The notes beneath the pieces are model-generated. The model searched no databases and was not told where the DNA came from. It saw only the letters and a program-made list of their open reading frames with translations. The position numbers were made by a program, and so were the translations under genes. From the NCBI GenBank assembly GCA_024637095.1, contig JAGXFV010000048.1:2629-66628 (forward strand): a DNA stretch of 64,000 nt, given 5' to 3'. Source of the DNA: Actinomycetes bacterium (lineage in GTDB: Bacteria; Actinomycetota; Thermoleophilia; RBG-16-64-13). Of the stretch, positions 3,470-25,778 are shown piece after piece (the first letter of the stretch is position 1; every line of letters starts with the position of its first letter).

Positions 3470-3695
3470 AACCGTCAGGTGCCTCGCGAGGCGTCGGCAG
3501 AAGCCGGATGGGCACAGCCCGTGTCGCCAAGCGAGGAGAATAGGAAATCGGGTGAAAATCCCGAGCGGTCCCGCCGCTGTGAACGGGGAGCAAACCCGCA
3601 AGTAGGCCACTGTTTCACCGCCGATCGAAGGATCGGCAAGGGGAATGGGAAGGCGCGGGCAAGCCTTGATCCGTGAGCCAGCAGACCTGCCTGAG
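3470..3695 (+). ncRNA. Cobalamin riboswitch (long, AdoCbl/class I-like)
   Basis: Core AATAGGAAATCGGGTGAAAATCCCGAGCGGTCCCGCCGCTGTGA, GCCACTG, GGGAAGG and B12 box AGCCAGCAGACCTGCC; P1 CAGGT(3476-80)/ACCTG(3685-89). Confidence 0.93.
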
Positions 3696-3742
3696 TGGTG
3701 GTAGGCCCCCCGCGTGAAGGGGGCCCTGCTGGGGGATGATGG

Positions 3743-3779
3743 AAAAGTCTCCGGCCGATCGAGGCTGGGGGCTTTTTTT
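3743..3779 (+). terminator. Intrinsic terminator, riboswitch expression platform
   Basis: GTCTCCGGCC-GATCGA-GGCTGGGGGC 10-bp stem with GU pairs, followed by T7, between riboswitch and first ORF. Confidence 0.75.
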
Positions 3780-3830
3780 GTCCCCCGACCTCGATCACGT
3801 CATCGGAATCGGACGTGAAGGGGGCGAACA

Positions 3831-4466
3831 ATGGCAACTGAGCAAAGCGCAGTGAGACGGGGACGCGGACAGGCCGGAGTCGGGGCCGAAATGGGCGGCG
3901 TCGGTGCCGGGGGTGGCACGCTCGCATGGGGGACGAGGCCGGCGCGTTTCTGGCGCACGGACACCAGGGCACTGGTGGGGGCGGTTGTCCTCGGCGTCGC
4001 ATTCGTGCTCGTGCAGCAGGTGGCTCACCGCATCGACGCGGTTCTATGGCCGACCCTGATCATCATCGGTGGGATCACCTGGGCCACCTTCACCGGGCTG
4101 ATCACGCTTATCTACCGCCAGCCGGGCGGAATCATCATGGGCGAGACCCAGGCTTTGGTTGCGGTGGCCACCGGTTTGTCGCCCCTGGCCCTTTTCTTCA
4201 TCCCGGCGAACGGGTTCGGCTCGCTGGCCTACGGCGCGGTGGCCTGGCGGCTATCCATGGAGCGTTGGAGCCATCATTTCCTTGCCCAACTGGCCTGCAA
4301 CGTGGTGGGGAATGCCTGTATAGCGGTCGGCCTCTACGTGGTGCTCGGCCTGCCCACCCCGGTGGTGCTCGTGTCCTCGGCGGTCACCGCGGCGGCGGGC
4401 ACCGTGGGCAGCACCATACTCACCCGGCGTATCTACACGGCCGTTCGCAGCAGCGGTCTGGCTTAG
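3831..4466 (+). CDS. ECF transporter S-component-like membrane protein
   Basis: About 6 TM helices in 211 aa; TRALVGAVVLG N-terminal helix typical of S components; co-operonic with EcfA/EcfT. Confidence 0.65.
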   Translation: MATEQSAVRRGRGQAGVGAEMGGVGAGGGTLAWGTRPARFWRTDTRALVGAVVLGVAFVLVQQVAHRIDAVLWPTLIIIGGITWATFTGLITLIYRQPGGIIMGETQALVAVATGLSPLALFFIPANGFGSLAYGAVAWRLSMERWSHHFLAQLACNVVGNACIAVGLYVVLGLPTPVVLVSSAVTAAAGTVGSTILTRRIYTAVRSSGLA

Positions 4467-4473
4467 CCGGGGC

Positions 4474-5889
4474 GTGTCGATGGACCCGCAAACGAAGACG
4501 ACGGAAGTCGGAGGCGCCGGCCAGGACTGGCGCCCTCTGCTTCACGAACTCGAACGCGACGGCGAGGTGGTCCGCATCGCGACCCCGATCGCACGCGAGT
4601 ACGAGATCAGCGCGCTGATGATGGATTTGGAGAAGGCCAGGCGGTACCCCCTGGTGATATTCGAGAACGTGGGCGGCGGGGATGTTCCCGTTGTCACGAA
4701 CGCGCTAGCACCCAGGGAACGGCTCGCACGCGCTCTCGACGTCTCGCCCAGCGCGCTCAGCGAGGAGTTTGCGAAGCGCATCCAGACCCGGCCGGGGACG
4801 CGGCGGTTGAAGGAAGCCGCTTTCGAAGCGGTGAGCTACGTGGGCTCGGAGGCAGACCTCGGCCGCCTTCCTATCCTGACGCACTTCCCCATAGACGCCG
4901 GGCCGTACATCACCGGCGGCCTGGTCGTGGCCAGAGATCCGCAGAGCGGCGCGGAGACCCTCGGTTTTCATCGCATGCAATTGAAGGGGCGCGATAAGCT
5001 GGGCGTCAGCCTGCACTCGCGGCAGCGTCTGTGGGAATACCTGCGCCGCGCCGAGGCCAGGGGTCAGAACCTGGAAGCATCAGTGGTGATCGGTGTGCAT
5101 CCGGCGGTCGCGCTGGGTTCTATGGCTCTGATCCCCTATGAGGAAGGTAAGTTCAGCGCCATCGGCGGTCTCTTTGGCGAGCCGCTCGAGGTGGCTCAGT
5201 GCCGTACGGTCGATCTCGAGGTACCGGCCTGGTCGGAGATCGTGATCGAGGGGGAGATCCTAGCGGGCGTGCGGGAGGCGGAAGGACCATTCGCCGAATT
5301 CACCAACTACGCCTGTTTCCGCAGCACCGAGAACGTGTTCCGGGTGAAGGCAATACAGCATCGCGAAAAGCCCCTCTATCATGGGCTAACTCCCGGGATG
5401 AGTTCCGAGCACATCACTATCGTCGGCGTCCAGCGGGAAGGCGACGTGCTCGCCGCGCTCAATCGCACCCTGCCCAATGTGCGCGCGGTGCACGCGCCGT
5501 TCTCGGCCTGTGGTTTGTTCCACGTGTATGTGTCGCTGGAGAAGGTGGCCGAGGGGCAGGCTCAGCAAGCCATTTTCGGCGCCTTCGCCGTGGACCACAA
5601 CATCAAGCTGGTGGTGGTGGTCGACGCCGACGTCGATGTCTACGACGAGCGCGAGGTGCTCTGGGCGCTGGCCACGCGTCTGCAGGCGGATCGGGGGGTT
5701 ACCATCGTCCCGCAGCATTTGGGCATGGGTTGCACTCTGGACCCCTCGACGGACGAGCTCAGCCGTACGGCCAAGATGGGCATCGACGCCACGCGGCCCT
5801 TGAGCGGCTTCGCTCCCACCATCACCATCGACGACGATGTCCGCCAAGCGGTCCGGCGCTTCTGGCCGGATTTCGGGCTCCAGCACTGA
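4474..5889 (+). CDS. UbiD-family (prFMN-dependent) decarboxylase/carboxylase
   Basis: GFHRMQ, AWSEIVIEG, catalytic EGPFAEF, VVVDADVD, VLWALATR, LDPS, KMGIDAT motifs. Confidence 0.92.
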   Translation: MSMDPQTKTTEVGGAGQDWRPLLHELERDGEVVRIATPIAREYEISALMMDLEKARRYPLVIFENVGGGDVPVVTNALAPRERLARALDVSPSALSEEFAKRIQTRPGTRRLKEAAFEAVSYVGSEADLGRLPILTHFPIDAGPYITGGLVVARDPQSGAETLGFHRMQLKGRDKLGVSLHSRQRLWEYLRRAEARGQNLEASVVIGVHPAVALGSMALIPYEEGKFSAIGGLFGEPLEVAQCRTVDLEVPAWSEIVIEGEILAGVREAEGPFAEFTNYACFRSTENVFRVKAIQHREKPLYHGLTPGMSSEHITIVGVQREGDVLAALNRTLPNVRAVHAPFSACGLFHVYVSLEKVAEGQAQQAIFGAFAVDHNIKLVVVVDADVDVYDEREVLWALATRLQADRGVTIVPQHLGMGCTLDPSTDELSRTAKMGIDATRPLSGFAPTITIDDDVRQAVRRFWPDFGLQH

Positions 5890-5890
5890 G

Positions 5891-8017
5891 GTGCACGCCC
5901 TGAACGGCAGCGGTCTTCAACTGGCCGTGGATACCGGAGGGACCTTCACCGACGTGGTTGCGGCGCGGGCGGGACAGCCGGTATTCGTTTCGAAGGTGCC
6001 CACGGATGCCCGGAACCCGACGGGAAGCTTCATGGCCGGGATTGAGTCTGTGGCCGAGCATTGGGGACTGACGTTGCCGGCTCTCCTTGAGCGCACCGAC
6101 CGCATCATCCATGGGACCACGCTGGGAGTCAACGCGCTCCTGGAGGGCAGCCTCGCGCGCACGGCTCTGCTGACCACCGAGGGCTTTCGCGACGCTCTGG
6201 AGCTCAGGCGCTCCAGGCTCGAGGACCAGTGGGATCTTCGTTTCCGGCCTCCGGAACCGCTGGTCCCCCGTTATCTGCGTCTGGGCCTCCGCGAAAGGAT
6301 CGACTGGTCTGGGCGGGTGATCACTCCGCTCGACGAGCAACAGGTGCGGGAAGTGGCGGAGATCCTGCGCAGGCATCGGGTCGAGGCGGTAGCGCTGTGT
6401 TTTCTCTTCTCCTACCTCAATCCCACCCACGAACAGGCGGCGGCCGCCGTTTTGCGGTGCGAGCTTCCCGGGGTCTATGTCAGCCCTTCGTCCGAGGTGG
6501 CTCCCCGGATGGGTGAATACGAACGCACTTCCACGGTCGTGCTGAACGCAGCCCTTGGCCCGGTGTTCGATGACTATCTGACCGAACTCGAGCATGCCCT
6601 GAGCCGCCATGGCTCGAGGGGCCCGGTCCACTTGGTGCTCAACAGCGGAGTGCTCAACGATGCCGTCGGCGTTCTGGGCGCGCCCGTCAAAACCCTGTTC
6701 TCCGGCCCGGCGGGCGGCTCGCGAGGTGCCGAAGTCGTGGCGCGGCAGCGGGCCGAGGACTGTTTGATCGTCGCCGACATGGGCGGGACCAGCTTCGATA
6801 CCCACCTGGTGCTTGGCGGCCGCACACCCCTCGTTGCCGAATCGGCCGTTGCCGGACATCCTGTCGCTTTGCCTCTGGTCGACATCCACTCGATTGCTGC
6901 AGGCGGGGGGAGCGTGCTCTCGGTCGACGAAGCGGGAGGCGTAAGGGTGGGGCCGCGGTCCGCCGGTTCCCTCCCGGGTCCCGCCTGTTACGGCCGGGGA
7001 GGCGTGGAGGCGACGCTCACCGACGCCGCGCTCGTTCTTGGGCTGCTGGCCCCGGCGGGCCTGCTGGGCGGCCGCATGCCTCTTGATGCGGACTTGGCGT
7101 GGCAGGCATTAGACCTTGCTCTCGCTCAACCCCTGGGGCTCGAGGTGCCTGCGGCTGCGTTTGTCGCCTACCGGGTGGCGGCTGCTCGGATGGCGGACGC
7201 CGTCAGGTTGATAACCGTGCAGCGGGGGATCGATCCGGGAGAGTGTGCCCTGCTTGGGGCAGGTGGCGCATTTCCGCTGTTCGCCGCGGCGGTGGCCGAG
7301 GATTTGGCCATCAAGAAAGTTCTGCTGCCGGCAGTGGGCCCAGCCTGGTGCGCCTGGGGAATGCTCGCCGCCGGCTGCGGCCACGAGGCCGTCCAACCCT
7401 GCCTATTGCCGGGCGATCACTGGGATCAAGATGGCTTTGAGACTGCTTTGGCAAAGGCTTCGGCTGCGGGGCACGAAGAGCTTGCGCGGCTCGGCGTGGG
7501 CCCGGAGCAACTCGATGCCGCATTGGTCCTGGAGATGCGTTACGCGGATCAGCACCACGCCATCGACGTGCGTCCCCCCGTCGAGCTTGGGCCAGGGCGG
7601 CCTCCGGCCGCGCTTGCTCGCGAGTTCCATGCTCGTCACGAAACCCTGTTTGGTTACTGCGAGCCCAGCCAACCCTGGCAACTTCTTGCCATGCGTCTCA
7701 GTCTGCGTGAAAATCGCCCGGAACCGCCCGCCGGGAGGTACGGTCGTGGAGCGAGATCTGGAGCTGGAGCTGGAGCAGGAGCAGGAGCGGGAGCGGGAAC
7801 GGGAGCGGAGGGCTCGGCCTCTGTCGGGCTCAGACAGGTCACTCTGGACGAGGGTGGCCCGACTCCGGTCCCGGTTTGGGGTCAAGACTTCATTGGCGAG
7901 GTGCCGGGCCCCTGCCTGGTGGAGTTCAACTACACCACCGCGGTGGTTCCCCGGGGTTACGTGGCCCGGTTCGCCTCGGATGGCATCCTCGAGCTGCGAA
8001 GAAAGGAGGAAGCATGA
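5891..8017 (+). CDS. Hydantoinase/oxoprolinase family, A (ATP-binding) subunit
   Basis: DTGGTFTD, HGTT..NALLE, SGPAGG, DMGGTSFD, AGGGS, GPACYGRGG; GTG 5891 immediately after the UbiD stop. Confidence 0.92.
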   Translation: MHALNGSGLQLAVDTGGTFTDVVAARAGQPVFVSKVPTDARNPTGSFMAGIESVAEHWGLTLPALLERTDRIIHGTTLGVNALLEGSLARTALLTTEGFRDALELRRSRLEDQWDLRFRPPEPLVPRYLRLGLRERIDWSGRVITPLDEQQVREVAEILRRHRVEAVALCFLFSYLNPTHEQAAAAVLRCELPGVYVSPSSEVAPRMGEYERTSTVVLNAALGPVFDDYLTELEHALSRHGSRGPVHLVLNSGVLNDAVGVLGAPVKTLFSGPAGGSRGAEVVARQRAEDCLIVADMGGTSFDTHLVLGGRTPLVAESAVAGHPVALPLVDIHSIAAGGGSVLSVDEAGGVRVGPRSAGSLPGPACYGRGGVEATLTDAALVLGLLAPAGLLGGRMPLDADLAWQALDLALAQPLGLEVPAAAFVAYRVAAARMADAVRLITVQRGIDPGECALLGAGGAFPLFAAAVAEDLAIKKVLLPAVGPAWCAWGMLAAGCGHEAVQPCLLPGDHWDQDGFETALAKASAAGHEELARLGVGPEQLDAALVLEMRYADQHHAIDVRPPVELGPGRPPAALAREFHARHETLFGYCEPSQPWQLLAMRLSLRENRPEPPAGRYGRGARSGAGAGAGAGAGAGTGAEGSASVGLRQVTLDEGGPTPVPVWGQDFIGEVPGPCLVEFNYTTAVVPRGYVARFASDGILELRRKEEA
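7759..7810 (+). repeat. In-frame 6-bp GGAGCN tandem repeat encoding a Gly-Ala linker
   Basis: ggagctggagctggagcaggagcaggagcgggagcgggaacgggagcg encodes GAGAGAGAGAGTGA. Confidence 0.8.
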
Positions 8018-9774
8018 CGCCTTCCTTCCCGGCGGCGGCCACCCGTCGACCTCAAGGTGGGGCAGGCGAGGTAGGCGAGGCTGCCGGCGTGATGCGAAGA
8101 ACCGTGCTGGCGGGCCGTCTGGACGCGATTTGTCGGGAGATGGGTCTGGTGCTCGAGCGTTCCGCCCGTTCTCCCATCTTTGCGGAGGCCTGCGATTTCT
8201 CCTGCGGAGTGTGCGACGCGCACGGCGAACTCGTCTCCCAGCTAAGCGGCATCCCCATCCTTGCGGCGGCGGGCTCGGCCAGCGTGAATGCGGTGATCGG
8301 CCGGTACGGCGAGGCCATCGAGGATGGCGATTCGTTCATAGTCAACGACCCCTACTCCGGCGGGAACCACTTGCCGGATATCGGCATCGTAACGCCGGTG
8401 TTCGCGCAGGGCGAACTACTTTTCTTCTGTGTGAGCCGCGCGCACCACGGCGATGTGGGCGGCTCTTCACCCGGCAGCTACAACCCCAGGGCGACGGACG
8501 TGTTCCAGGAAGGGGTGCGGATCCCGCCAACCCGAATCGCTCGGGCGGGGGAAGCATTGGACGACGTTCTCGAGCTGATCGCCTACAACACCCGCAACCC
8601 CGCCATGCTGCGAAGCGATCTGCTCGCCCAACTGGGGGCGAACAAGGTGGGAGCCCGCCGGCTGCTGGAGTTTGTCGCGAGAGAGTCCGCCTCGGTTGTC
8701 CGAGAAGCCGTGGCCGACCTGCTGGATCGGGCGGAAGAGCTGACCCGGCGGCGCATCGCCTCACTTCCCGACGGGGTTTACCGCGCGACCGAAGAGGTGG
8801 ACGACGATGGCTTTCAACAGGAGCGGATACGGATTCGGACCACGATAGAGGTGCGGGGCGACCGTTTGCTGGTGGACTTCGAGGGCACCGATGCCCAGGT
8901 GCGCGGCTTTCTCAACTGCGCCTTGGCCACCACTCGGACGGCGGCGGCGATCGCTGTACTCTGGGTTCTGGGAGCGGACATTCCCCGGAACGGGGGGGCC
9001 TTCCGGGCGGTAGAGGTCAACGCTCCGCTCGGCACTTTGGTGAATCCCCGGCCTCCCGCGCCGGTGACGCTCAGCACGCTCACTCCCGCCGGCGAAATCA
9101 TCGCAGCGGTCTTCAAGGCTCTGTCCGCCACGGCGCCGTCCGCCCTTCCCGCCGGGTTCAGCCGGTTCTGTGGCCCTTCCTTCTTTGGCGTGGACCCGCG
9201 TAACGAACGATTCTATGTGGGCTTCGCCTTCTGCGCCCTGGGCGCGGGTGGGGCGATGAGAGGATTGGACGGAGCCGCCTACATGTCTCCCATCTCGAAT
9301 CACGGCGGAGTGCGCACCCCCAACATAGAGGCCAATGAAGTGCAGTACCCCCACCTCACCCTGCGCCACGAGATGGAGCCCGATACCGCCGGCGCCGGAC
9401 GCTGGCGAGGTGGGCCCGGGGTGAGATACGAGTTCCGGGTCTACGACCCCGAGCCCGGCATCGTCATGTTCGGTGACGGGATGAAGGTGGCGCCCTACGG
9501 CGTTGCCGGCGGCCACGAGGGCAGCCTCAACCGGGCCTATCTCACGACGGCCGAAGGGGAGGTCGTCACGCTTCGGAGCAAAGCCGCGGCTCGGGAACTG
9601 GCCCCCGGCGACAGCATCACCCTCATCTCTTCCGGGGGCGGTGGCTACGGCCCGCCCCGTGAGCGGGGCCGGGAGCGGGTCAGGTGCGACGTGCGGGACG
9701 GTCTGGTTTCGGTCGAGGCTGCGGCGTCGCTTTACGGGGTCGGCTCCGATGAGTTGCCGGCGGAGCCTGAATGA
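8014..9774 (+). CDS. Hydantoinase B/oxoprolinase family subunit
   Basis: ATGA overlap with subunit A; SPIF.E..DFSCG, NDPYSGGNHLPD, HHGDVGG, DTAGAGRWRGG, SSGGGGYGPP. Confidence 0.92.
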   Translation: MTPSFPAAATRRPQGGAGEVGEAAGVMRRTVLAGRLDAICREMGLVLERSARSPIFAEACDFSCGVCDAHGELVSQLSGIPILAAAGSASVNAVIGRYGEAIEDGDSFIVNDPYSGGNHLPDIGIVTPVFAQGELLFFCVSRAHHGDVGGSSPGSYNPRATDVFQEGVRIPPTRIARAGEALDDVLELIAYNTRNPAMLRSDLLAQLGANKVGARRLLEFVARESASVVREAVADLLDRAEELTRRRIASLPDGVYRATEEVDDDGFQQERIRIRTTIEVRGDRLLVDFEGTDAQVRGFLNCALATTRTAAAIAVLWVLGADIPRNGGAFRAVEVNAPLGTLVNPRPPAPVTLSTLTPAGEIIAAVFKALSATAPSALPAGFSRFCGPSFFGVDPRNERFYVGFAFCALGAGGAMRGLDGAAYMSPISNHGGVRTPNIEANEVQYPHLTLRHEMEPDTAGAGRWRGGPGVRYEFRVYDPEPGIVMFGDGMKVAPYGVAGGHEGSLNRAYLTTAEGEVVTLRSKAAARELAPGDSITLISSGGGGYGPPRERGRERVRCDVRDGLVSVEAAASLYGVGSDELPAEPE

Positions 9775-11237
9775 GCGCCGTACTCGAGGTTAGCCTGGAG
9801 ACAGTGACCTACGAAGGGTCCTCGGTGCCGGCTCTGAGCGGGGTGGAATTCTCCGTCGGCGAAGGCGAGTTCGTTGTCGTCTCCGGACGGGTGGGCGCGG
9901 GCAAGTCGACTCTCTGCCATTGTCTGGCCGGAGCGATTCCCTGCTACTACTCGGCCGAAGTCGACGGGAAGATTCGCGTGGCGGGCAGGGACCTGGGCGG
10001 CGCTCCTATTGGTGAACTCGCGGGGATCATTGGATACCTGGCCCAGGAATCCCAAGCCCAGATCGTGGAGGGCACTGTCGCGGAGGATGTGGCCTTCGGC
10101 CCCTGTAATCTTGGTCTGCCCAGGGGGGAGGTCCGTCGGCGGGTGGAGTCCTGTCTCGAATGGGTAGGGCTGTCCGGATTTGAAACGCGGGACCCCCAAA
10201 CCCTATCGGGAGGGGAAGCGCAGCGGGCGGTCCTGGCCGGGGTGATCGCCCTGCACCCTCGCCTTCTGATCCTCGATGAACCTCTGGCCGAGCTGGATCC
10301 ATCCGGGCGGCGGTTGGTGGCGCAGGGTCTGCGGGAGCTTTCTCGTCGCGGAACCTCGGTCCTGCTGGCCACCACGCGTCCCGATCAGGTACGGCCCTTT
10401 GCGGATCGGACGGTTTCATTGTCTCCCGGCGGTGAGTACCCAAGCGCGAATCCGTCCGGCGTGGGAGGAGTGGGCAAGAGCGGGGCCGCTACGCGCCTGG
10501 GGATCGGCTCCCGCAGTCCGGAGGGCCGGCCGGAAAAGCATGTTCCCGGCGAGCCCGGCGTACGCTTCGACCGCTGCACCCACGTATATCCGGGCGGCCG
10601 CGCCGGGTGCACCGATGTCGACCTATTTCTCGAGCCCGGCGGCATGGTTGCCCTGCTCGGCGTCAACGGCTCGGGCAAGACCACGCTCGGAAAGCATGTA
10701 AACGGTCTTCTCCGGGCCACCACGGGGAGCGTGCTGGTCGACGGGATCGACCCGGCGGGCAAAGCGCGAGGCCTGCTGCGCGCTCGAACCGGCTTCGTCT
10801 TTCAGAACCCGGACTACCAGTTGTTCGGGAACAGTGTGGAAGAAGAACTGGCCTTTGGTTTGCGCGTGCGCGGCACGGCCCGCGATGAGATCAAGCGTCG
10901 CGTGGACGATGCCGTGTCTCGCTTTGGCCTCGAACGCTGGCGCAGTGCCCATCCGCACCGCTTGAGCCGCGGCCAACGACAGTTGCTTGCAGTGGCCGGT
11001 GTCCTGGCAGCGGACCCCTCGGTGCTGGCGGCCGACGAACCGACCTCGGGATTGGACCCCGAAACGGCGCTCCACGTACTCAGAGAGCTCGGGAGCGTGG
11101 CCGCCCGCGGGGGCACCGTGTTGCTTATGACCCACGACGCCGAACTTGCCTCCACCGTGGTCGATCGTTTGGCCGTGATGGAAGCGGGCTTCCTTCGCTC
11201 GAGCATGCTACCGAGTCGGCAGCGGGTGGCGGGATGA
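9771..11237 (+). CDS. ECF transporter ATPase with two fused NBDs (EcfA-A')
   Basis: Walker A GRVGAGKST and GVNGSGKTT; signatures LSGGE and LSRGQ; FQNPDYQLF; EDVAFG/EELAFG. Confidence 0.9.
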   Translation: MSAVLEVSLETVTYEGSSVPALSGVEFSVGEGEFVVVSGRVGAGKSTLCHCLAGAIPCYYSAEVDGKIRVAGRDLGGAPIGELAGIIGYLAQESQAQIVEGTVAEDVAFGPCNLGLPRGEVRRRVESCLEWVGLSGFETRDPQTLSGGEAQRAVLAGVIALHPRLLILDEPLAELDPSGRRLVAQGLRELSRRGTSVLLATTRPDQVRPFADRTVSLSPGGEYPSANPSGVGGVGKSGAATRLGIGSRSPEGRPEKHVPGEPGVRFDRCTHVYPGGRAGCTDVDLFLEPGGMVALLGVNGSGKTTLGKHVNGLLRATTGSVLVDGIDPAGKARGLLRARTGFVFQNPDYQLFGNSVEEELAFGLRVRGTARDEIKRRVDDAVSRFGLERWRSAHPHRLSRGQRQLLAVAGVLAADPSVLAADEPTSGLDPETALHVLRELGSVAARGGTVLLMTHDAELASTVVDRLAVMEAGFLRSSMLPSRQRVAG

Positions 11238-11980
11238 CCGCGCGGGCGGAGTCCGGCCGAGGGAGAGTGGATCCGCGTCTGAGTTCATGCTGGCTGCTGC
11301 TGATTGCTGCCTGCGCTCTGGCGGTGGAATCGGGCGCACTGGTGGCGGGCGGAGTTGCGTGCCTGCTGGTGGTCTCCTTGCTCGTGGGATTGAAGCTCAG
11401 GTTGGTTGGGCACGGCCTGTTGGCTACGGCTTTGGTTGGTCTGCAGATCTTCGTTATGCGGTGGGTTTTTGGAGAGGAGGGCGTTCTGGCGGCCGGGATG
11501 GGGGCGGCTTTGGAGGGGGGCGTATTGGTGCCTATCTTGAGCGGCTCCGCCGAGACGGCGGCTCGCCTGGGAGCCCTCCTCCTGGCCGCTATGCAGTTCC
11601 ACCAACTCACGCGTCCCTCCGACCTCACGCAGCTCTTGACCCGCCGGGGCATTCCGCACCGCTGGGCGGCGCTCCCTGCCATCGCCTTGCGCTTCGTGCC
11701 CCTGATGCAGACGGAGTTGACCGCAGTATGGGAAAGCCAGGCTTCTCGGGGGCTGCCGACCGAGCGCGCGCGCGACAAGCTGAAGGCGCTCCTTCCTGTC
11801 GGGTTGCCTTTCGTCTACCGCTCGATGCGGCGCGCCAACGAACTCGCGCTGGCGATGGAGCTTCGCGGGTTTGGCGTCTTGGCCCGGCCTACTTTTCTGT
11901 CGGAGCTACGAATGAGCCCCGCGGAGCGGGCGGCATCCGCCGGTCTGTTGGTGGCTACGCTGGCAGTGCTGTTGGTCTGA
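11234..11980 (+). CDS. ecfT: ECF transporter transmembrane T component
   Basis: VDPR start, LRFVPLM, coupling motifs ASRG and ELRGF; ATGA overlap with the ATPase. Confidence 0.88.
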   Translation: MTARAESGRGRVDPRLSSCWLLLIAACALAVESGALVAGGVACLLVVSLLVGLKLRLVGHGLLATALVGLQIFVMRWVFGEEGVLAAGMGAALEGGVLVPILSGSAETAARLGALLLAAMQFHQLTRPSDLTQLLTRRGIPHRWAALPAIALRFVPLMQTELTAVWESQASRGLPTERARDKLKALLPVGLPFVYRSMRRANELALAMELRGFGVLARPTFLSELRMSPAERAASAGLLVATLAVLLV

Positions 11981-12014: not shown

Positions 12015-13517
12015 TTAATCCACGGCGCCCGGCAGCGATCGCACTACCTCGCGGACCGATTCATGCACCCGGGCGACAGAGCGGTCTTCGGTTATGGCGG
12101 ATAGGGCCCCGTCGACCGCGGAGAGGGTCGCGCCCGTGCGAGTTCCCAGCTTTGGAGGAGGCCGGAACAGTGAAAGGACGTCCCGGGCGAGTAGCAGTTC
12201 GGTGGTGAGCAGGCTTTCGAGCAGGTCCAGGGCTTCGTCGGCCTTGCGCACACTGAGCGGGGCGGCGGTGGCGTGGTCTTCGACCTCCGTTTCCAGCGGC
12301 GGTACGTCGAGGGTGGCCGGAGCGGCCAGCTGCTTGAGTTCCGCGAGTTGAGCGGCCGCGGCATAGCGCAGGGAAAGCCCGAAAAACTCGGAGGTGGGGT
12401 TCGGCGGGGGAGAGTCCGGCGCCTCCGTGAGCCGGAAGAACTCCTGCCAGAGGTGTTCCATCCGCCGCTCGCTGAGCTGCCCTACATGGGCGAGGGCGAT
12501 CCTTAGAGCGTCGAAAGAGATGGCCGGCACGATGGGGTGGAAGTTGCCGTTGTGAATCATCCTCCCCTCGTCGACCGCGACCATGGGGTTGTCGCTCACC
12601 GAGTTGAGCTCCAGTTCGAGGGCGGCGCGCGCCGAGCCAAGGAACTCACGAAGCGCGCCGTGAACCTGGGGGACCACTCGGAACGAGAGGGGGTCCTGGA
12701 TGGAACGTGGCCCCGCCTGCTCAAGCAGGTAACTTCCCCGAAGGGCACTTTCGAGGGACCTCGCCGCCGCGATGTGGCCGGCGTAGGGCTTGGCCGCCGC
12801 CACAGCCGGGTGGAACACCGAGGGGTTGGCGCGGACCGCCTCCATTGAAAGCGCCGCCGCGAGGTCTGCGGCGGCGGCGACCCGCGCTGCCCGGAGCGCG
12901 ACCAGGGCGCCAAAACCCAGGGAGATCCCATTGGACGAGACCAGCGCGAGCGCGTCCTTGGGTTGAGCGACGGCCGGCGCTATCCCGGCGCGTCGCAGCG
13001 CCTCGGCGCCCGGGAGCAGTACGCCGCCGTACTCGGCCCGGCCTTCGCCGATGACCACGAGGGCGATGGCGGCCATCTGCCCCAGATCGGCCGCCCCTAC
13101 CGAACCGTGGCGGGGGACCACTGGGTGGACGCCGGCGTTGAGCATGGCGACCAGCACCTCGGCCACGCGCAGACTGGCTCCCGACCCGCCCTGGGCGAGA
13201 CCGTTCAGGCGAACTGCCATGGCACTGCGCACTACTTCGCGAGGTGCGGGCTCTCCCACCCCGCCCTCGTGCATGTGCAGCAGCGCCACCTGCATCTGGC
13301 AGATCATCTCGTCGGGGAGGCGCGTGTCCTTAAGGTGCCCAACCCCCGTGTTTAGCCCGTAAACGGGGAGTCCGCCGGCGAGTGCTTTGTCGACAACAGC
13401 CCTCGCGGAGCCGATACGCTCGACGGCGGAGTGGTGTAATTTAACAGGCGCTCCGGCGGCTACCCGCCCGAGTTCGTCTATCGTCAGGCTACGTCGGCCA
13501 ATTTGCACTACGTCCAT
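12015..13517 (-). CDS. Aromatic amino acid lyase family protein lacking the MIO tripeptide (HAL-like, ergothionase-type clade)
   Basis: VYGLNTGVG, QDPLSFRVVPQVHG, SDNP, GNFH, EDH motifs; MIO site reads GSVGAADL instead of GS(V/I)GASGDL; start trimmed to ATG 13517. Confidence 0.85.
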   Translation of the reverse strand: MDVVQIGRRSLTIDELGRVAAGAPVKLHHSAVERIGSARAVVDKALAGGLPVYGLNTGVGHLKDTRLPDEMICQMQVALLHMHEGGVGEPAPREVVRSAMAVRLNGLAQGGSGASLRVAEVLVAMLNAGVHPVVPRHGSVGAADLGQMAAIALVVIGEGRAEYGGVLLPGAEALRRAGIAPAVAQPKDALALVSSNGISLGFGALVALRAARVAAAADLAAALSMEAVRANPSVFHPAVAAAKPYAGHIAAARSLESALRGSYLLEQAGPRSIQDPLSFRVVPQVHGALREFLGSARAALELELNSVSDNPMVAVDEGRMIHNGNFHPIVPAISFDALRIALAHVGQLSERRMEHLWQEFFRLTEAPDSPPPNPTSEFFGLSLRYAAAAQLAELKQLAAPATLDVPPLETEVEDHATAAPLSVRKADEALDLLESLLTTELLLARDVLSLFRPPPKLGTRTGATLSAVDGALSAITEDRSVARVHESVREVVRSLPGAVD

Positions 13518-13704
13518 ATTCAATTTCTTCCCAAAGGGAACTACGGGCACACGCCGGGGCTCGGGGCGCAGAGGCGCTGCTGTGAGAGGAAGGGCCCCCG
13601 CTTTGTGAGAAGGGACGCCGGCGTCCTTCGGTGCTCTCGTGGGATTAAGCGGGCGGGCCGGGGTATGCTAAACAGGTCTCGCCAGCTGCCAAAGGAGACC
13701 GAGT

Positions 13705-21435: not shown

Positions 21436-22590
<1,155 letters not shown>

Positions 22591-22596
22591 AGCTGC

Positions 22597-24273
22597 CTAG
22601 AACTCACCGGTGTTGCCCACCCGAAAACGCTCCACCAACAGGATGGCACCCGCCGTGACCACCATCAGCACGGTGCTCATGGCCATCGCTCGGCCGAAGT
22701 TGAGCGAGCCCGGCTGCCCGAGCAGACGGAAGATGGCTATCGGTAGGGTGGGCGTGTCGGGTCGGACGATGAAGGCGGTCGCTCCGAACTCCCCGAGGCT
22801 GATGGCGAGGGCGAAGGCAGCCCCGACCAGAGCGGAGCGGGTGACCAGCGGCAGGTCTATCTCACGCCAGACCCTTGCGGGCGTGGCTCCCAGCATGGCG
22901 GCGGACTCGCGCAGGGGCGCGCGAATGGAGCGCATCACCGGGGCCGTCGTGCGCACCACGAAGGGAATGGCCACCAGTGAGTGGGCCAGGGGTATGAGCA
23001 CCGGCGAGGTGCGCAGATCGACGGGGTAGTCGAAGGCCACCAGGAAACCGAACCCGATGGTGACCGCCGAGGTGCCCAGGGGGAGCATGAGCAGCATGTC
23101 GAAACCGCGGGCCAGCGGTCCGCGCCGGTAGCTCACCACGACGGCAGCCATGACGCCGATGAGCACCGCGACGAGCATGGCGCTCACGCCGAAGAGAAGA
23201 GAGTTGCGGAGTGCTTCCCCGGGCGGCACGAAGAGCGTGGTCCCGCCGGTTTCGCCTAACGAGCGATAGTAGGTGAGGGCGTAACCTTCGGCGGTGTTCA
23301 CCGACCGCTCGATCAGGACCAACAGCGGCCCCCCAAGGAAGACCGCAGCAAAGCCCAGATTGGCAGCCACGAATCCCCATTCCCTCGGCCCCCGGGGACG
23401 GCGCGAGTTCTGTTCGGCGGGTCGCAGGTGTTGCTGGCGGATCCCCCTCTCCTGATACCGCGCGTAGAGCAGCAGGATGAGACTCACCGCCGCGAGCTGA
23501 AGTACGGCCAGAGCGGCCGCCACCGACAGGTTGAGGTAGGAGACGGTTTGCCGGTAGATCTCCACCTCGATGGTGGCGTACCGCAATCCGCCCAGGATGA
23601 TGATCACGCCGAAAGAGGTAAAAGTGAAGAGGAACACGATTGCGGCCGCGGCGGCGATGGCCGGGCGCAGCCGGGGCAGGGTGACCTCCCAAAGTGTACG
23701 GAGCCGGCCGGCGCCAAGCACCCGGGCTGCCTCTTCCGCGCGCGGGTCTAGGTGGGCCCAGAGCCCTCCCACCGTGCGCACCACCACGGCGTAGTTGTAG
23801 AAGACGTGGGCGGCGAGGATGGCCCAGACCGAACGGCTGAGGTCTAAGGGGAGGGCGCCGGAGGGCCCCAGCAAGGCGAGAAAGGCCGACCCTACGACCA
23901 CGGTGGGCAGGACGAAGGGCACGGTGATCGCGGCCCGGGCCAGGCTTTTCCCCGGGAAATCGTAACGGGCGAACACGTAAGCCGCCGGCATTGCCGCGGC
24001 CAGGGTGAGCAGGGTGGAGAGCACCGCCTGCCACAAGGTGAACCACGCGGCCCCGCGGAGCGCGGGCCGCCGCAGGATGTCCGCGAAGGCACCGTAGTCG
24101 AAGTCGCCGCCGGGAAACAGGCTGACCGCCAGGATGCTGCCCAGGGGATAGAGAAACAGAAGGCCTAGAAACCCCGCGGGGATCAGGAAGAGCAGCGGCC
24201 GGAGAAGCGGCCGCAGAAAGCGACTGCTCCTCCCGGTTTCCGGGATCAGGCCTGAGGAGCCGGGGGTGCTCAA
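22597..24273 (-). CDS. thiP: Thiamine ABC transporter permease (two-repeat)
   Basis: Two EAA loops (EEAARVLGA, ESAAMLGA); TTG 24273 overlaps the thiB stop (TTGA). Confidence 0.82.
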   Translation of the reverse strand: MSTPGSSGLIPETGRSSRFLRPLLRPLLFLIPAGFLGLLFLYPLGSILAVSLFPGGDFDYGAFADILRRPALRGAAWFTLWQAVLSTLLTLAAAMPAAYVFARYDFPGKSLARAAITVPFVLPTVVVGSAFLALLGPSGALPLDLSRSVWAILAAHVFYNYAVVVRTVGGLWAHLDPRAEEAARVLGAGRLRTLWEVTLPRLRPAIAAAAAIVFLFTFTSFGVIIILGGLRYATIEVEIYRQTVSYLNLSVAAALAVLQLAAVSLILLLYARYQERGIRQQHLRPAEQNSRRPRGPREWGFVAANLGFAAVFLGGPLLVLIERSVNTAEGYALTYYRSLGETGGTTLFVPPGEALRNSLLFGVSAMLVAVLIGVMAAVVVSYRRGPLARGFDMLLMLPLGTSAVTIGFGFLVAFDYPVDLRTSPVLIPLAHSLVAIPFVVRTTAPVMRSIRAPLRESAAMLGATPARVWREIDLPLVTRSALVGAAFALAISLGEFGATAFIVRPDTPTLPIAIFRLLGQPGSLNFGRAMAMSTVLMVVTAGAILLVERFRVGNTGEF

Positions 24274-25514
24274 TCGAGGACGATTCCGGCCCACTCCTCG
24301 ATCCACTCCTCGCGGTTCGCCTCGATATCAACGATGTCGAGGGTCAGCGGCTCGGAAGGCAGTGCCGCGTATTGGACGAACTCCGGGGGCAGTTCGGCGT
24401 TTTCGTTGGCCGGAAACACGAACATGTTGAGCGGGATGTCTTCCTGGAACTCGAGGCTGAGCATGAAATCGATGAAATCGCGGGCGGCCTGCTCCTTTTC
24501 GGTCCCACTCAGGATCCCTGCAAACTCGATCTGACGGAAGGAACCGTCGGTTATCACCCCGGTGGGCGCCTCTTCCAGTTCCTCCTCTGCGAAGATGACC
24601 TCGGCCGCGGGCGACGAGGCGTAGGAGACCACCAGCGGGCGGTCGCCCCCTCCGGCGGCGGTGAAGTGGGAGTAGTAGGCCTCCTCCCAACCCCCGGCGA
24701 CGAGCACATCGTTCGCAACCAGTTCGGCCCAGTAATCCTGCCAGGTGTACTCGCCCTCCTCGCCGAACTCGGCGATGGTAGCGAGCAGGAAGGCCAGCCC
24801 CGGCGAGGATGTGGCGGGATTCTCCACCACCAGCATCCCCCGGTACTCCGGTGAGGTGAGTTCAGCGAGTTTCTCGGGCACGAGCGGCTGGCCCTGACCC
24901 CCCAGGGCGCTCTTGTCGTAGTTGAGGGAGACGTAGCCGAAGTCGATCGGGGTGACGCGATTTTCCGCGTCCAGCCTCAGGTCCTCCGGCACCGCGTCGA
25001 GCAGTTCTGACTCGTAGGGCACGAACAGGTCGGCTTCCAGGGCGCGCGAGAGGAAGGTGTTGTCGACGCCGAAGATGATGTCGGCCACCGGATTGTCCTT
25101 GGTCAAAATGGCCTGGTTGAGCATGGCCCCGGCGTCACCCGCCTGCAGAACCTGCACGTGAATGCCTGTTTGCTCTTCGAAGGAGGTGAGCGTGCCTTCG
25201 GACAGGGCGAAGGAGTCGTGTGTCATGAGGACCAGGCTATCGGGGGCCTCGTCGCCCGCCCCTCGGTCGGCAGCTTGGTCACCCTCCGCGGTGGGCTCAG
25301 TTTCCTCGATCCCGACCTCATCAGTCGCGGTGGCCGCGGCCTGGTCCTCGGTATCCCCCTCGCCGTCCCCGCAGGCGGCCGGCAAGGTCAGGGGGATGAG
25401 AAGCAACACGGAAATCAGCAGCAGGCCGGCTCGCCCGGCACGCGTCCGGGGTCCGCGACGGCGCTGGATTGCTCGAGGGGGTTGGATTTGGTCGGCGTTC
25501 TGGAAAATCGGCAT
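24270..25514 (-). CDS. thiB: Thiamine ABC transporter substrate-binding lipoprotein
   Basis: MTHDSF, GDAGAMLNQAIL, GVDNTF, TSSPGLAFL, GWEEAY, VSYASSP, FRQIEFAG; lipobox AAC. Confidence 0.9.
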   Translation of the reverse strand: MPIFQNADQIQPPRAIQRRRGPRTRAGRAGLLLISVLLLIPLTLPAACGDGEGDTEDQAAATATDEVGIEETEPTAEGDQAADRGAGDEAPDSLVLMTHDSFALSEGTLTSFEEQTGIHVQVLQAGDAGAMLNQAILTKDNPVADIIFGVDNTFLSRALEADLFVPYESELLDAVPEDLRLDAENRVTPIDFGYVSLNYDKSALGGQGQPLVPEKLAELTSPEYRGMLVVENPATSSPGLAFLLATIAEFGEEGEYTWQDYWAELVANDVLVAGGWEEAYYSHFTAAGGGDRPLVVSYASSPAAEVIFAEEELEEAPTGVITDGSFRQIEFAGILSGTEKEQAARDFIDFMLSLEFQEDIPLNMFVFPANENAELPPEFVQYAALPSEPLTLDIVDIEANREEWIEEWAGIVLD

Positions 25515-25597
25515 TCCTCAGCTCCTTTCGGGCAACACTACGCTTCAGGGCTGCTGAGGGGGCGTGAGGCGGCGCCGGAAGGCTTCGGCACCTTGCT

Positions 25598-25690
25598 GTC
25601 TTACTTCCCTTCGCCGGCATTACCCGGATCAGGTTCACAGGGTCTGCGGTCTGTGACCGCACTCTCAGCGTACTGCGCTCCCCTAGCACA
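25598..25690 (-). ncRNA. TPP riboswitch
   Basis: Minus strand GGGGAGC...GCTGAGAG...GACCCTGTGAACCTGATCCGGGTAATGCCGGCGAAGGGA, directly upstream of thiB. Confidence 0.93.
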
Positions 25691-25778
25691 TCCCGGTGTC
25701 GCGGCTCGGCGACACGGCGCGCAAAACTATAGCATGGCCCGCTCCGGCCTTCTGGTACCATCGCTGACCATGCCCCCC

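Follow-up and report, generated by a model that had tools for sequence, protein, structure and literature searches.

The locus described here raises the question of why a cobalamin (vitamin B12) riboswitch stands in front of genes for a UbiD-type decarboxylase, a HyuAB-type hydrolase and a small-molecule importer. It is located on a stretch of 64,000 nucleotides from an Actinomycetota genome (contig JAGXFV010000048.1 of assembly GCA_024637095.1, positions 2,629 to 66,628; hereafter referred to as the window, in which positions are counted unless another locus is named). Six genes are packed on the forward strand 3' of the riboswitch, encoding a predicted S-component of an energy-coupling factor (ECF) transporter from a sequence family without earlier classification (3831..4466), a UbiD-family decarboxylase of the HmfF-like branch that depends on prenylated flavin mononucleotide (prFMN) (4474..5889), the HyuA-type ATP-binding subunit (5891..8017) and the HyuB-type catalytic subunit (8014..9774) of an ATP-dependent lactamase/hydantoinase, a fused EcfA-EcfA' ATPase (9771..11237) and the CbiQ-family transmembrane coupling subunit EcfT (11234..11980). 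No paper describing this operon was found in a literature search, nor was anything linking the UbiD or HyuAB families to cobalamin riboswitches or cobamides, which is in line with the original prediction, made from the DNA letters of the window, that neither family is a standard member of B12 regulons. Results of the present analysis indicate that the arrangement recurs across bacterial phyla, and the operon suggests a hitherto undescribed step in metabolism related to B12.

Within the leader, the aptamer was identified by Rfam cmscan as a cobalamin riboswitch (RF00174) at 3504..3708 on the forward strand, with 98.8 bits (E 1.8e-23) compared to a gathering score of 31.5; the match spans model positions 1-189 of 189. 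The original prediction had named a B12 riboswitch and a terminator ahead of the operon, and both were recovered, the riboswitch as a full-length match whose position is close to, though not the same as, the 3470-3695 proposed earlier. The expression platform (3742..3784, forward strand) comprises an intrinsic terminator hairpin and a U-tract, for which RNAfold yielded a 15-bp stem at approximately 3742-3777 running into seven T residues at 3773-3779. A simple terminator scan missed this terminator, which was detected by RNAfold. The folding energy of the leader region is -61.2 kcal/mol, corresponding to z = -4.5 relative to shuffled controls. Furthermore, a hairpin followed by a T-run was present 47-101 nt 3' of 67 of the 70 related riboswitch matches, and transcription attenuation is therefore the probable general mechanism. 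Downstream of the platform, a GGGGG Shine-Dalgarno sequence lies 8 nt 5' of the ATG of the S gene (3831). The S and UbiD genes are separated by 7 nt, the UbiD and HyuA genes by 1 nt when HyuA starts at the GTG at 5891 (starting from an alternative in-frame ATG, 5837, it would share 53 nt with UbiD), and the remaining junctions are ATGA overlaps at 8014, 9771 and 11234. Read directly, these junctions agree with the gaps of 7 and 1 nt and the three overlaps noted earlier, and the gene identities given there hold as well. Based on the leader architecture, repression of the operon by cobalamin through the riboswitch is predicted. Five other cobalamin riboswitches of Dehalobacter restrictus respond to cyanocobalamin, the present locus not being among them (PMC4285132).

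Conservation of the arrangement was evaluated by scanning one genome per GTDB species with UbiD, resulting in 73 loci. The six proteins of the window and accessory genes from Dehalobacter were mapped on these loci by tblastn, and all open reading frames (ORFs) were clustered; ORF calling was crude in this survey, and key loci were each cross-checked by tblastn, Pfam or Rfam. Riboswitches were located with an nhmmer profile built from four Rfam-confirmed riboswitches, and a spread of the matches obtained was in turn confirmed by Rfam. UbiD orthologues are 55-96% identical, with values of 59-81% in distant anaerobes. They occur in Actinomycetota, in many Bacillota and in the "delta" lineages, the loci of the scan coming from Thermincola, Peptococcaceae, Desulfosporosinus, Desulfitobacterium, Dehalobacter, Acetobacterium, Alkalibaculum, Geosporobacter, Anaerosolibacter and Candidatus Formimonas; further loci originate from Desulfomonilaceae and "delta" metagenome-assembled genomes (MAGs), and from Methanosphaera and other Methanobacteriaceae. 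All hosts are strict anaerobes with a strong dependence on corrinoids: acetogens, organohalide respirers and methyl-reducing methanogens. UbiD was recorded at 71 loci, EcfAA' at 60, HyuA at 58, S at 54, and EcfT and HyuB at 52 each; the accessory genes UbiX and LpdD were found at 27 and 26 loci, and DUF2284 at 12 loci plus three archaeal ones. The S gene adjoins UbiD in nearly all loci.

A riboswitch on the same strand, directly 5' of the first cluster gene, was detected by nhmmer in 65 of the 72 bacterial sources. In six of the other seven, the sequence is truncated 5' of the cluster; the last one (L064) carries an outgroup UbiD of 55% identity with only UbiX beside it. Metagenome contigs found via the S protein showed the same pattern of riboswitch and operon. 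Moreover, the riboswitch (RS) was kept in no fewer than six gene orders: that of the window, RS-S-UbiD-HyuAB-EcfAA'T; RS-EcfAA'T-S-UbiD-HyuAB, with or without UbiX-LpdD at its end; RS-HyuAB-S-UbiD-EcfAA'T; RS-S-UbiD-EcfAA'T-HyuAB; RS-S-UbiD-EcfAA'T, from which HyuAB is absent; and RS-UbiD-HyuAB alone. Where the operon is split (L009, L071 and L022), one riboswitch precedes UbiD-HyuAB and another precedes EcfAA'-EcfT-S, and each half therefore appears to be individually selected for B12 control. The question posed in the original prediction, whether the synteny of riboswitch, UbiD, HyuAB and ECF genes recurs, can thus be answered in the affirmative across phyla, usually with HyuAB included, and the concern that orthologous operons might usually lack the riboswitch is contradicted by the 65 of 72 sources carrying one. 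Comparison of the surveyed loci shows that selection has kept these genes together under predicted B12 control in at least three bacterial phyla.

These results bear directly on the simplest alternative, namely that a commonplace operon for the catabolism of an aromatic lactam came to lie behind a riboswitch by accident in one genome. Distant relatives of the S protein do reside in protein-regulated clusters of catabolic appearance, as outlined below, and the neighbouring genes of the window are unrelated to B12. However, preservation of the riboswitch across phyla and six gene orders, and its doubling in split operons, leave accidental juxtaposition exceedingly improbable.

The next question concerns the nature of the S protein, which comprises 211 amino acids with a conserved core starting at approximately residue 40. 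No matches were obtained against Pfam or NCBIfam, and a 16-sequence profile retrieved no match from the PDB at E<=10, the CbrT and BtuM structures included. When 1.84 billion representative proteins were searched exhaustively with HMMER, only 48 relatives were returned at E<=1e-3, and one distant relative matches PF12822 weakly. The AlphaFold (AF2) model, built on 31 homologues, reached a predicted local distance difference test (pLDDT) value of 90 and, according to DSSP, contains five long helical segments, of which one extends over 37 residues. It has the fold of an ECF S-component: all high-probability Foldseek matches are S-components (YkoE, BioY, HmpT, FolT, CbiM and RibU), the top ones showing probabilities of 0.97-1.0 and template modelling (TM) scores of 0.5-0.6, with YkoE as the best, while CbrT and BtuM were not among the 50 matches listed. 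An AxxxA motif (ALVGA) is conserved in helix 1. These properties agree with the features by which group I S-components are recognised, namely a small size of about 180 amino acids, about six helices and a gene accompanied by those for A and T; at more than 50 loci, S is encoded together with EcfAA' and EcfT. Based on the modelled fold and the gene context, we therefore call the protein an ECF S-component of a new sequence family, its separate status following from the lack of any Pfam, NCBIfam or PDB sequence match. Membership in known S families such as CbrT, CbiM, BioY, RibU, ThiT or YkoE was not supported, as no sequence match to them was obtained.

The fused EcfA-A' protein contains two ABC_tran domains (PF00005) and passes TIGR04520 (ECF_ATPase_1) with 334 bits at a cutoff of 315, and EcfT matches PF02361 (CbiQ) with 74 bits compared to 25. 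Alanine-arginine-glycine-type coupling motifs define ECF T components, and EcfT carries ASRG and ELRG in its coupling helices. Judged from their sequences, EcfA-A', EcfT and S together form a dedicated group I ECF importer.

Since EcfT and EcfA are closest to CbiQ/CbiO-type models and CbiM is among the structural matches of S, cobalt acquisition has to be considered, in which the importer would take up a cobalt chelate and the enzymes would destroy its organic ligand to free the metal. CbiMNQO cobalt importers share a CbiQ-family T component and CbiO-like ATPases with the present system and are commonly placed under B12 riboswitches; FeoAB genes after the cluster in some Peptococcaceae and CobS/CobT-like genes in Acetobacterium would also be compatible with a role in metal supply. 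However, neither CbiM nor CbiN is encoded here, and the S subunit has no sequence similarity to CbiM/NikM. Moreover, one S-type ECF operon (L078, treated in the following paragraph) lies beside separate cobalt transporter genes, cbtAB, and no cobalt chelator of the required kind is known. Cobalt acquisition is accordingly rated as very unlikely.

Evidence on the cargo of the importer was obtained from operons in which S occurs without the UbiD cluster. At L078 (377-3970), a riboswitch is followed by EcfAA', S and EcfT in the absence of UbiD and HyuAB, the S protein being 48% identical to that of the window, and directly after this operon a second cobalamin riboswitch heads cbtB-cbtA-cbiC (4092-6409). 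The transporter alone is therefore a probable member of the B12 regulon. Three further, distant S relatives (profile E 1e-13 to 1e-10) reside in ECF clusters that have no riboswitch and encode cyclic-amide hydrolases: two contain Amidohydro_1 and CN_hydrolase proteins, one of these together with a nucleobase:cation symporter-1 (NCS1) permease, and the third contains HyuA-HyuB. These clusters look like modules for uptake and hydrolysis of cyclic amides. Because the distant relatives adjoin hydrolases of small cyclic amides, import of such compounds by the wider S family is suggested. In the distant clusters (L109, L111-L113 and L114), genes for GntR or AsnC regulators were also noted, and Amidohydro_1 and CN_hydrolase are accompanied there by the NCS1 permease or by luciferase-like oxidoreductases. 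Two copies of the S-component gene were found at each of L085 and L073.

Uptake of a corrinoid by S, with HyuAB and UbiD repairing or remodelling the corrinoid or a lower ligand freed from it, represents another explanation for which these findings are relevant. ECF and ATP-binding cassette (ABC) systems under B12 riboswitches commonly import corrinoids, the S-only operon adjoins cobalamin genes, and corrinoids are rich in amides, which HyuAB-type enzymes are able to hydrolyse even when unactivated. ECF-CbrT of Lactobacillus delbrueckii and BtuM resemble the present system in combining a small S-type membrane protein with the logic of a B12 regulon. In contrast to these, the S protein described here has no PDB sequence match and no Pfam family, is coupled to a decarboxylase gene and is served by its own fused A-A' and T proteins; a corrinoid is a doubtful substrate for it. 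The profile search at E<=10 and the 50 listed Foldseek matches returned neither CbrT nor BtuM, corrinoids offer UbiD no carboxyl group on an sp2 carbon, the hydrolases linked to the distant S relatives act on small cyclic amides, and in several Desulfosporosinus loci UbiD-HyuAB stand alone under a riboswitch of their own. Corrinoid uptake and remodelling is thus considered improbable.

With regard to the enzymes, the UbiD protein contains the three UbiD Pfam domains (PF20695, PF01977 and PF20696) and scores 322 bits against TIGR00148 at a cutoff of 244.85. The exact UbiD sequence of the window has no database record, and a 96% identical relative (P0001) was used in its place. Of the conserved catalytic network, R167 (in HRMQ) as well as E270 and E275 (in EGPFAE) show no variation among 12 orthologues, and they match the HmfF motif in the alignment. 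The nearest solved relative is HmfF (6h6v), a 2,5-furandicarboxylate (FDCA) decarboxylase, with 292 bits and approximately 40-45% identity as estimated by eye, followed by the indole-3-carboxylate decarboxylase AnInD (176 bits) and then by UbiD, VdcC and AroY. The catalytic Arg/Glu/Glu residues of HmfF/HmfG and AnInD, the nearest characterised UbiD relatives, are conserved here, as is the specificity histidine of HmfF; the latter (H296 by alignment count, H297 in the published numbering) corresponds to His313 in the window. This position is occupied by Asn318 in pyrrole-2-carboxylate decarboxylase (PMC7976604). Arg331 of HmfF, in contrast, is replaced by Leu348 in the window and by Leu or Ile in the orthologues. 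The name FDCA decarboxylase, which some orthologues bear in Joint Genome Institute (JGI) annotations, was rejected: identity to HmfF is approximately 40-45% compared to 55-96% within the orthologous group, and R331 is exchanged for Leu. The genetic context here is a B12 riboswitch and an ECF importer instead of furan catabolism. The residue pattern fits a heteroaromatic acid other than FDCA as the putative substrate.

In many Bacillota, UbiX and LpdD travel with the cluster, and DUF2284 does so in some loci; LpdD has been described as a prFMNH2 chaperone (PMC10865409). UbiX and LpdD are read as helpers in cofactor maturation, and we speculate that DUF2284 acts likewise; their linkage to the cluster fits an active prFMN enzyme. 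No homologue of UbiX, LpdD or DUF2284 was found within the 64-kb window. The earlier description of a self-contained pathway does not hold, since UbiX, the prFMN synthase, is missing from the window. In VdcBCD/LpdBCD systems, too, UbiX and an LpdD-type protein are encoded next to the UbiD subunit, as in relatives of the operon, whereas the window lacks both partners and its UbiD reaches only 273 bits in the VdcC model compared to a cutoff of 650.

HyuA was assigned by PF05378 and PF01968, and HyuB by PF02538 with 521 bits. Their nearest structures are the two subunits of the Pseudomonas caprolactamase (6yra_A for HyuA with 389 bits, 6yra_B for HyuB with 299 bits), followed by N-methylhydantoinase, while HyuB obtained 147 bits against acetophenone carboxylase and 49 bits against acetone carboxylase. 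No gene for a gamma or an extra carboxylase subunit is present beside HyuAB. Because caprolactamase and N-methylhydantoinase outscore the carboxylases, ATP-driven hydrolysis of a lactam or hydantoin is the likelier predicted activity; a function as acetone or acetophenone carboxylase was rejected as the primary reading, the hydrolases scoring higher. Equivalence to caprolactamase CapAB was not supported either, since the best matches to the caprolactamase NCBIfam models amount to 483 bits (HyuA, alpha subunit) and 358 bits compared to an equivalog cutoff of 1000. CapAB, the 5-oxoprolinase OplAB and the N-methylhydantoinase HyuAB are likewise two-subunit, ATP-dependent hydrolases of cyclic amides, but regulation by B12, or coupling to UbiD or an ECF importer, is not known for any of them. 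Near its C-terminal part, HyuA of the window contains a low-complexity insert of Gly and Ala residues, GAGAGAGAGAGTGAEG, for which GGA/GCG repeats at approximately 7780-7840 code. HyuB is intact in the window, unlike in relatives of 95-96% identity, where it is split into two ORFs by a frameshift or an assembly error (L003, 13553-14536 and 14568-15305; likewise L004 and L005).

How could an importer, a lactamase and a decarboxylase serve a cell short of B12? In the proposed mechanism, plentiful adenosylcobalamin (AdoCbl) would bind the leader aptamer, the terminator hairpin would form and transcription would stop before the first gene. When B12 is scarce, read-through would lead to synthesis of the ECF importer, the prFMN-dependent UbiD and the HyuAB lactam hydrolase. 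The S-component would then capture a scarce heterocyclic micronutrient with a (hetero)aromatic carboxylate, a cyclic amide or both, the HyuAB enzyme would open the amide ring at the expense of ATP, and UbiD would remove the carboxyl group attached to the ring. In the simplest chemistry, opening of an aromatic-fused lactam by HyuAB would expose the very carboxylate that UbiD removes; in operons devoid of HyuAB, as in Desulfomonilaceae, the imported compound may already carry this carboxylate. The product would be required only at low B12 and could represent a lower-ligand base, an aminoimidazole/benzimidazole precursor or a tetrapyrrole precursor. The analysis established the riboswitch, the terminator, the gene identities, the S-component fold and the conserved linkage; the direction and order of the reactions, the substrate class and any connection between the product and cobamide synthesis are what we infer here. 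The original prediction had likewise proposed import, ring opening and decarboxylation, a sequence which is consistent with the fold of the S protein, its hydrolase-linked relatives and the lactamase-like character of HyuAB, although HyuAB is not universal.

Supply of a precursor for cobamide synthesis under B12 scarcity, irrespective of the particular product, is favoured because micronutrients are the cargo of ECF systems, every host relies strongly on corrinoids and the S-only operon adjoins cobalt/cobalamin genes; we judge the chances of this explanation to be evenly balanced. A more specific version is proposed tentatively, and with less confidence: the operon may encode a so far unrecognised salvage branch of cobamide biosynthesis in which S imports a heterocyclic lactam or carboxylate from the environment. 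From it, the lactamase and the prFMN decarboxylase would produce a building block of cobamides, which might be a pyrrole precursor or a precursor of a lower ligand of the aminoimidazole or benzimidazole type. With the same reserve, this branch may be common to acetogens, organohalide respirers, sulfate reducers and gut methanogens, the last-mentioned using it without the riboswitch. As to particular conversions, 4-hydroxybenzoate to phenol, and oxopurines via aminoimidazole carboxylate to aminoimidazole, were considered, as were lumichrome or pterin carboxylates, 6-hydroxynicotinate and porphobilinogen lactam; none of them is endorsed.

Several observations weigh against the supply of a cobamide precursor. 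Clustering of ORFs at the surveyed loci revealed no cob, cbi, bza or cobT gene conserved beside the cluster. HyuAB is absent from the operons of Desulfomonilaceae and the delta MAGs, which consist of S-UbiD-EcfAA'-EcfT only, and ring opening is therefore not obligatory. The archaeal copies have neither a riboswitch nor ECF genes. Furthermore, lower ligands differ between hosts, with 5,6-dimethylbenzimidazole (DMB) in Acetobacterium, a purine in Desulfitobacterium and Dehalobacter and 5-hydroxybenzimidazole in Methanobacteriales, and a single lower-ligand product is therefore unlikely. To our knowledge, neither cyclic amides nor aromatic carboxylates are among the precursors of cobamides. Reactions of UbiD enzymes are, moreover, reversible.

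Some of these points would be accommodated by a B12-sparing bypass, in which HyuAB and UbiD yield a metabolite or cofactor normally obtained from a B12-dependent enzyme, or sparing one, with nothing passing into cobamides. Its logic would be that of metE and nrdDG, as B12 riboswitches control B12-independent isozymes; the hosts are rich in B12-dependent enzymes, the missing cobamide biosynthesis genes beside the cluster would be expected, and the cluster also occurs in cobamide producers, which seemingly have no need to import a precursor. However, no B12-dependent reaction is known whose product could be obtained by lactam hydrolysis and decarboxylation of an aromatic acid. ECF importers serve micronutrients at low capacity, the S-only operon adjoins a riboswitch-cbtBA-cbiC unit, and MoxR/CobS-like and CobT_C/VWA (von Willebrand factor type A) genes follow the Acetobacterium cluster, all of which would be more difficult to reconcile with a bypass. 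This alternative is regarded as rather unlikely.

Returning to the supply of a cobamide precursor, close parallels are YkoEDC, which imports hydroxymethylpyrimidine (HMP), and CblT/CblS, which salvages alpha-ribazole. Like the system proposed here, both represent salvage of a cofactor fragment by a dedicated or shared ECF importer, repressed through a riboswitch by the finished cofactor, and it is YkoE that the S model matches best in structure. In contrast to the present operon, these systems import a ready-made fragment that is followed at most by a kinase, whereas here an ATP-dependent lactamase and a prFMN decarboxylase are predicted to process the cargo. Compared to known ECF salvage, the operon is thus distinguished, as far as its predicted functions allow this comparison, by a sequence-orphan S-component, the coupling of S to UbiD and processing by prFMN and ATP-dependent lactamase chemistry.

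B12 riboswitch regulons are among the most intensively mined, and their members have repeatedly revealed new cobamide transporters and enzymes. The present operon implies that anoxic habitats such as sediment, groundwater and the gut contain a compound that matters specifically at low B12. Identification of this compound would either add a step of cobamide biosynthesis or salvage in anaerobes of environmental and medical relevance (dechlorinators, acetogens and gut methanogens) or reveal a B12-sparing strategy, and would also provide an HmfF-like UbiD and a caprolactamase-like HyuAB with a physiological substrate. If the salvage branch exists, prFMN chemistry would for the first time be assigned a role in the metabolism of B12. 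Cultivable hosts are available in Acetobacterium, Desulfitobacterium, Desulfosporosinus and Dehalobacter.

Within the surveyed loci, further genes were observed inside or next to the cluster. In Thermincola-type loci (L065, 7739-9984; L085, 5412-7928), a gene for an aldehyde:ferredoxin oxidoreductase is located between S and UbiD inside the riboswitch-controlled operon, and at L085 it is preceded by a gene for a small 4Fe-4S protein (ferredoxin). In Acetobacterium (L051, 16294-19044; L042, 11451-16304), genes encoding MoxR/CobS-like AAA_5 and VWA/CobT_C proteins were identified 3' of UbiX-LpdD, an arrangement seen at seven loci of the Acetobacterium type. FeoA-FeoB follow the cluster at three Peptococcaceae-type loci, and polyamine and acetolactate genes are neighbours of the Desulfosporosinus cluster. 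A second cobalamin riboswitch was detected in Dehalobacter a few kb 3' of the cluster (L001, 19720-19920; L030, 19759-19897), where it heads genes for a member of the Zn-alcohol-dehydrogenase family and a TrpD-like (PF02885/PF00591) phosphoribosyltransferase; the two have the appearance of a further, uncharacterised pair under B12 control. An azaaromatic (yjdF) riboswitch with 85 bits lies directly 3' of the cluster in Anaerosolibacter carboniphilus (L054, 14543-14644). The archaeal copies from Methanobacteriaceae (L013, L025, L028, L035, L038 and L075) are arranged as UbiD-HyuA-HyuB, partly followed by LpdD, are 63-66% identical to the bacterial sequences and are accompanied by a gene for a major facilitator superfamily (MFS) transporter or by a divergent DUF2284 gene. 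This degree of identity suggests horizontal transfer.

The window itself has a G+C content of 65%. An Actinomycetota MAG obtained from the Soudan mine and several contigs from metagenomes are most closely related to it, with identities of 95-99%. Genes in the neighbourhood of the operon encode MscL, a GNAT acetyltransferase, a lyase resembling histidine ammonia-lyase (HAL), a Lon-domain protein, a TetR regulator, an MFS transporter and a hybrid-cluster protein, among which no evident link to B12 was recognised. The aromatic-amino-acid-lyase homologue (12015-13550, reverse strand) matches PF00221 and obtained 356 bits, below the hutH cutoff of 539. It reads GSVGAADLG at a motif for which HAL and phenylalanine ammonia-lyase (PAL) enzymes read GSVGASGDL, and the Ala-Ser-Gly triad forming the 4-methylideneimidazole-5-one (MIO) cofactor is apparently missing. 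At the equivalent position of a 95% identical relative (L003/L005), this gene has no counterpart. Further downstream, a thiamine pyrophosphate (TPP) riboswitch with 71.3 bits (25589-25694, reverse strand) heads a thiamine-type ABC importer on the same strand, composed of a binding protein passing TIGR01254 with 260 bits (24270-25517), a fused double permease (22597-24327) and a TOBE-domain ATPase (21436-22596).

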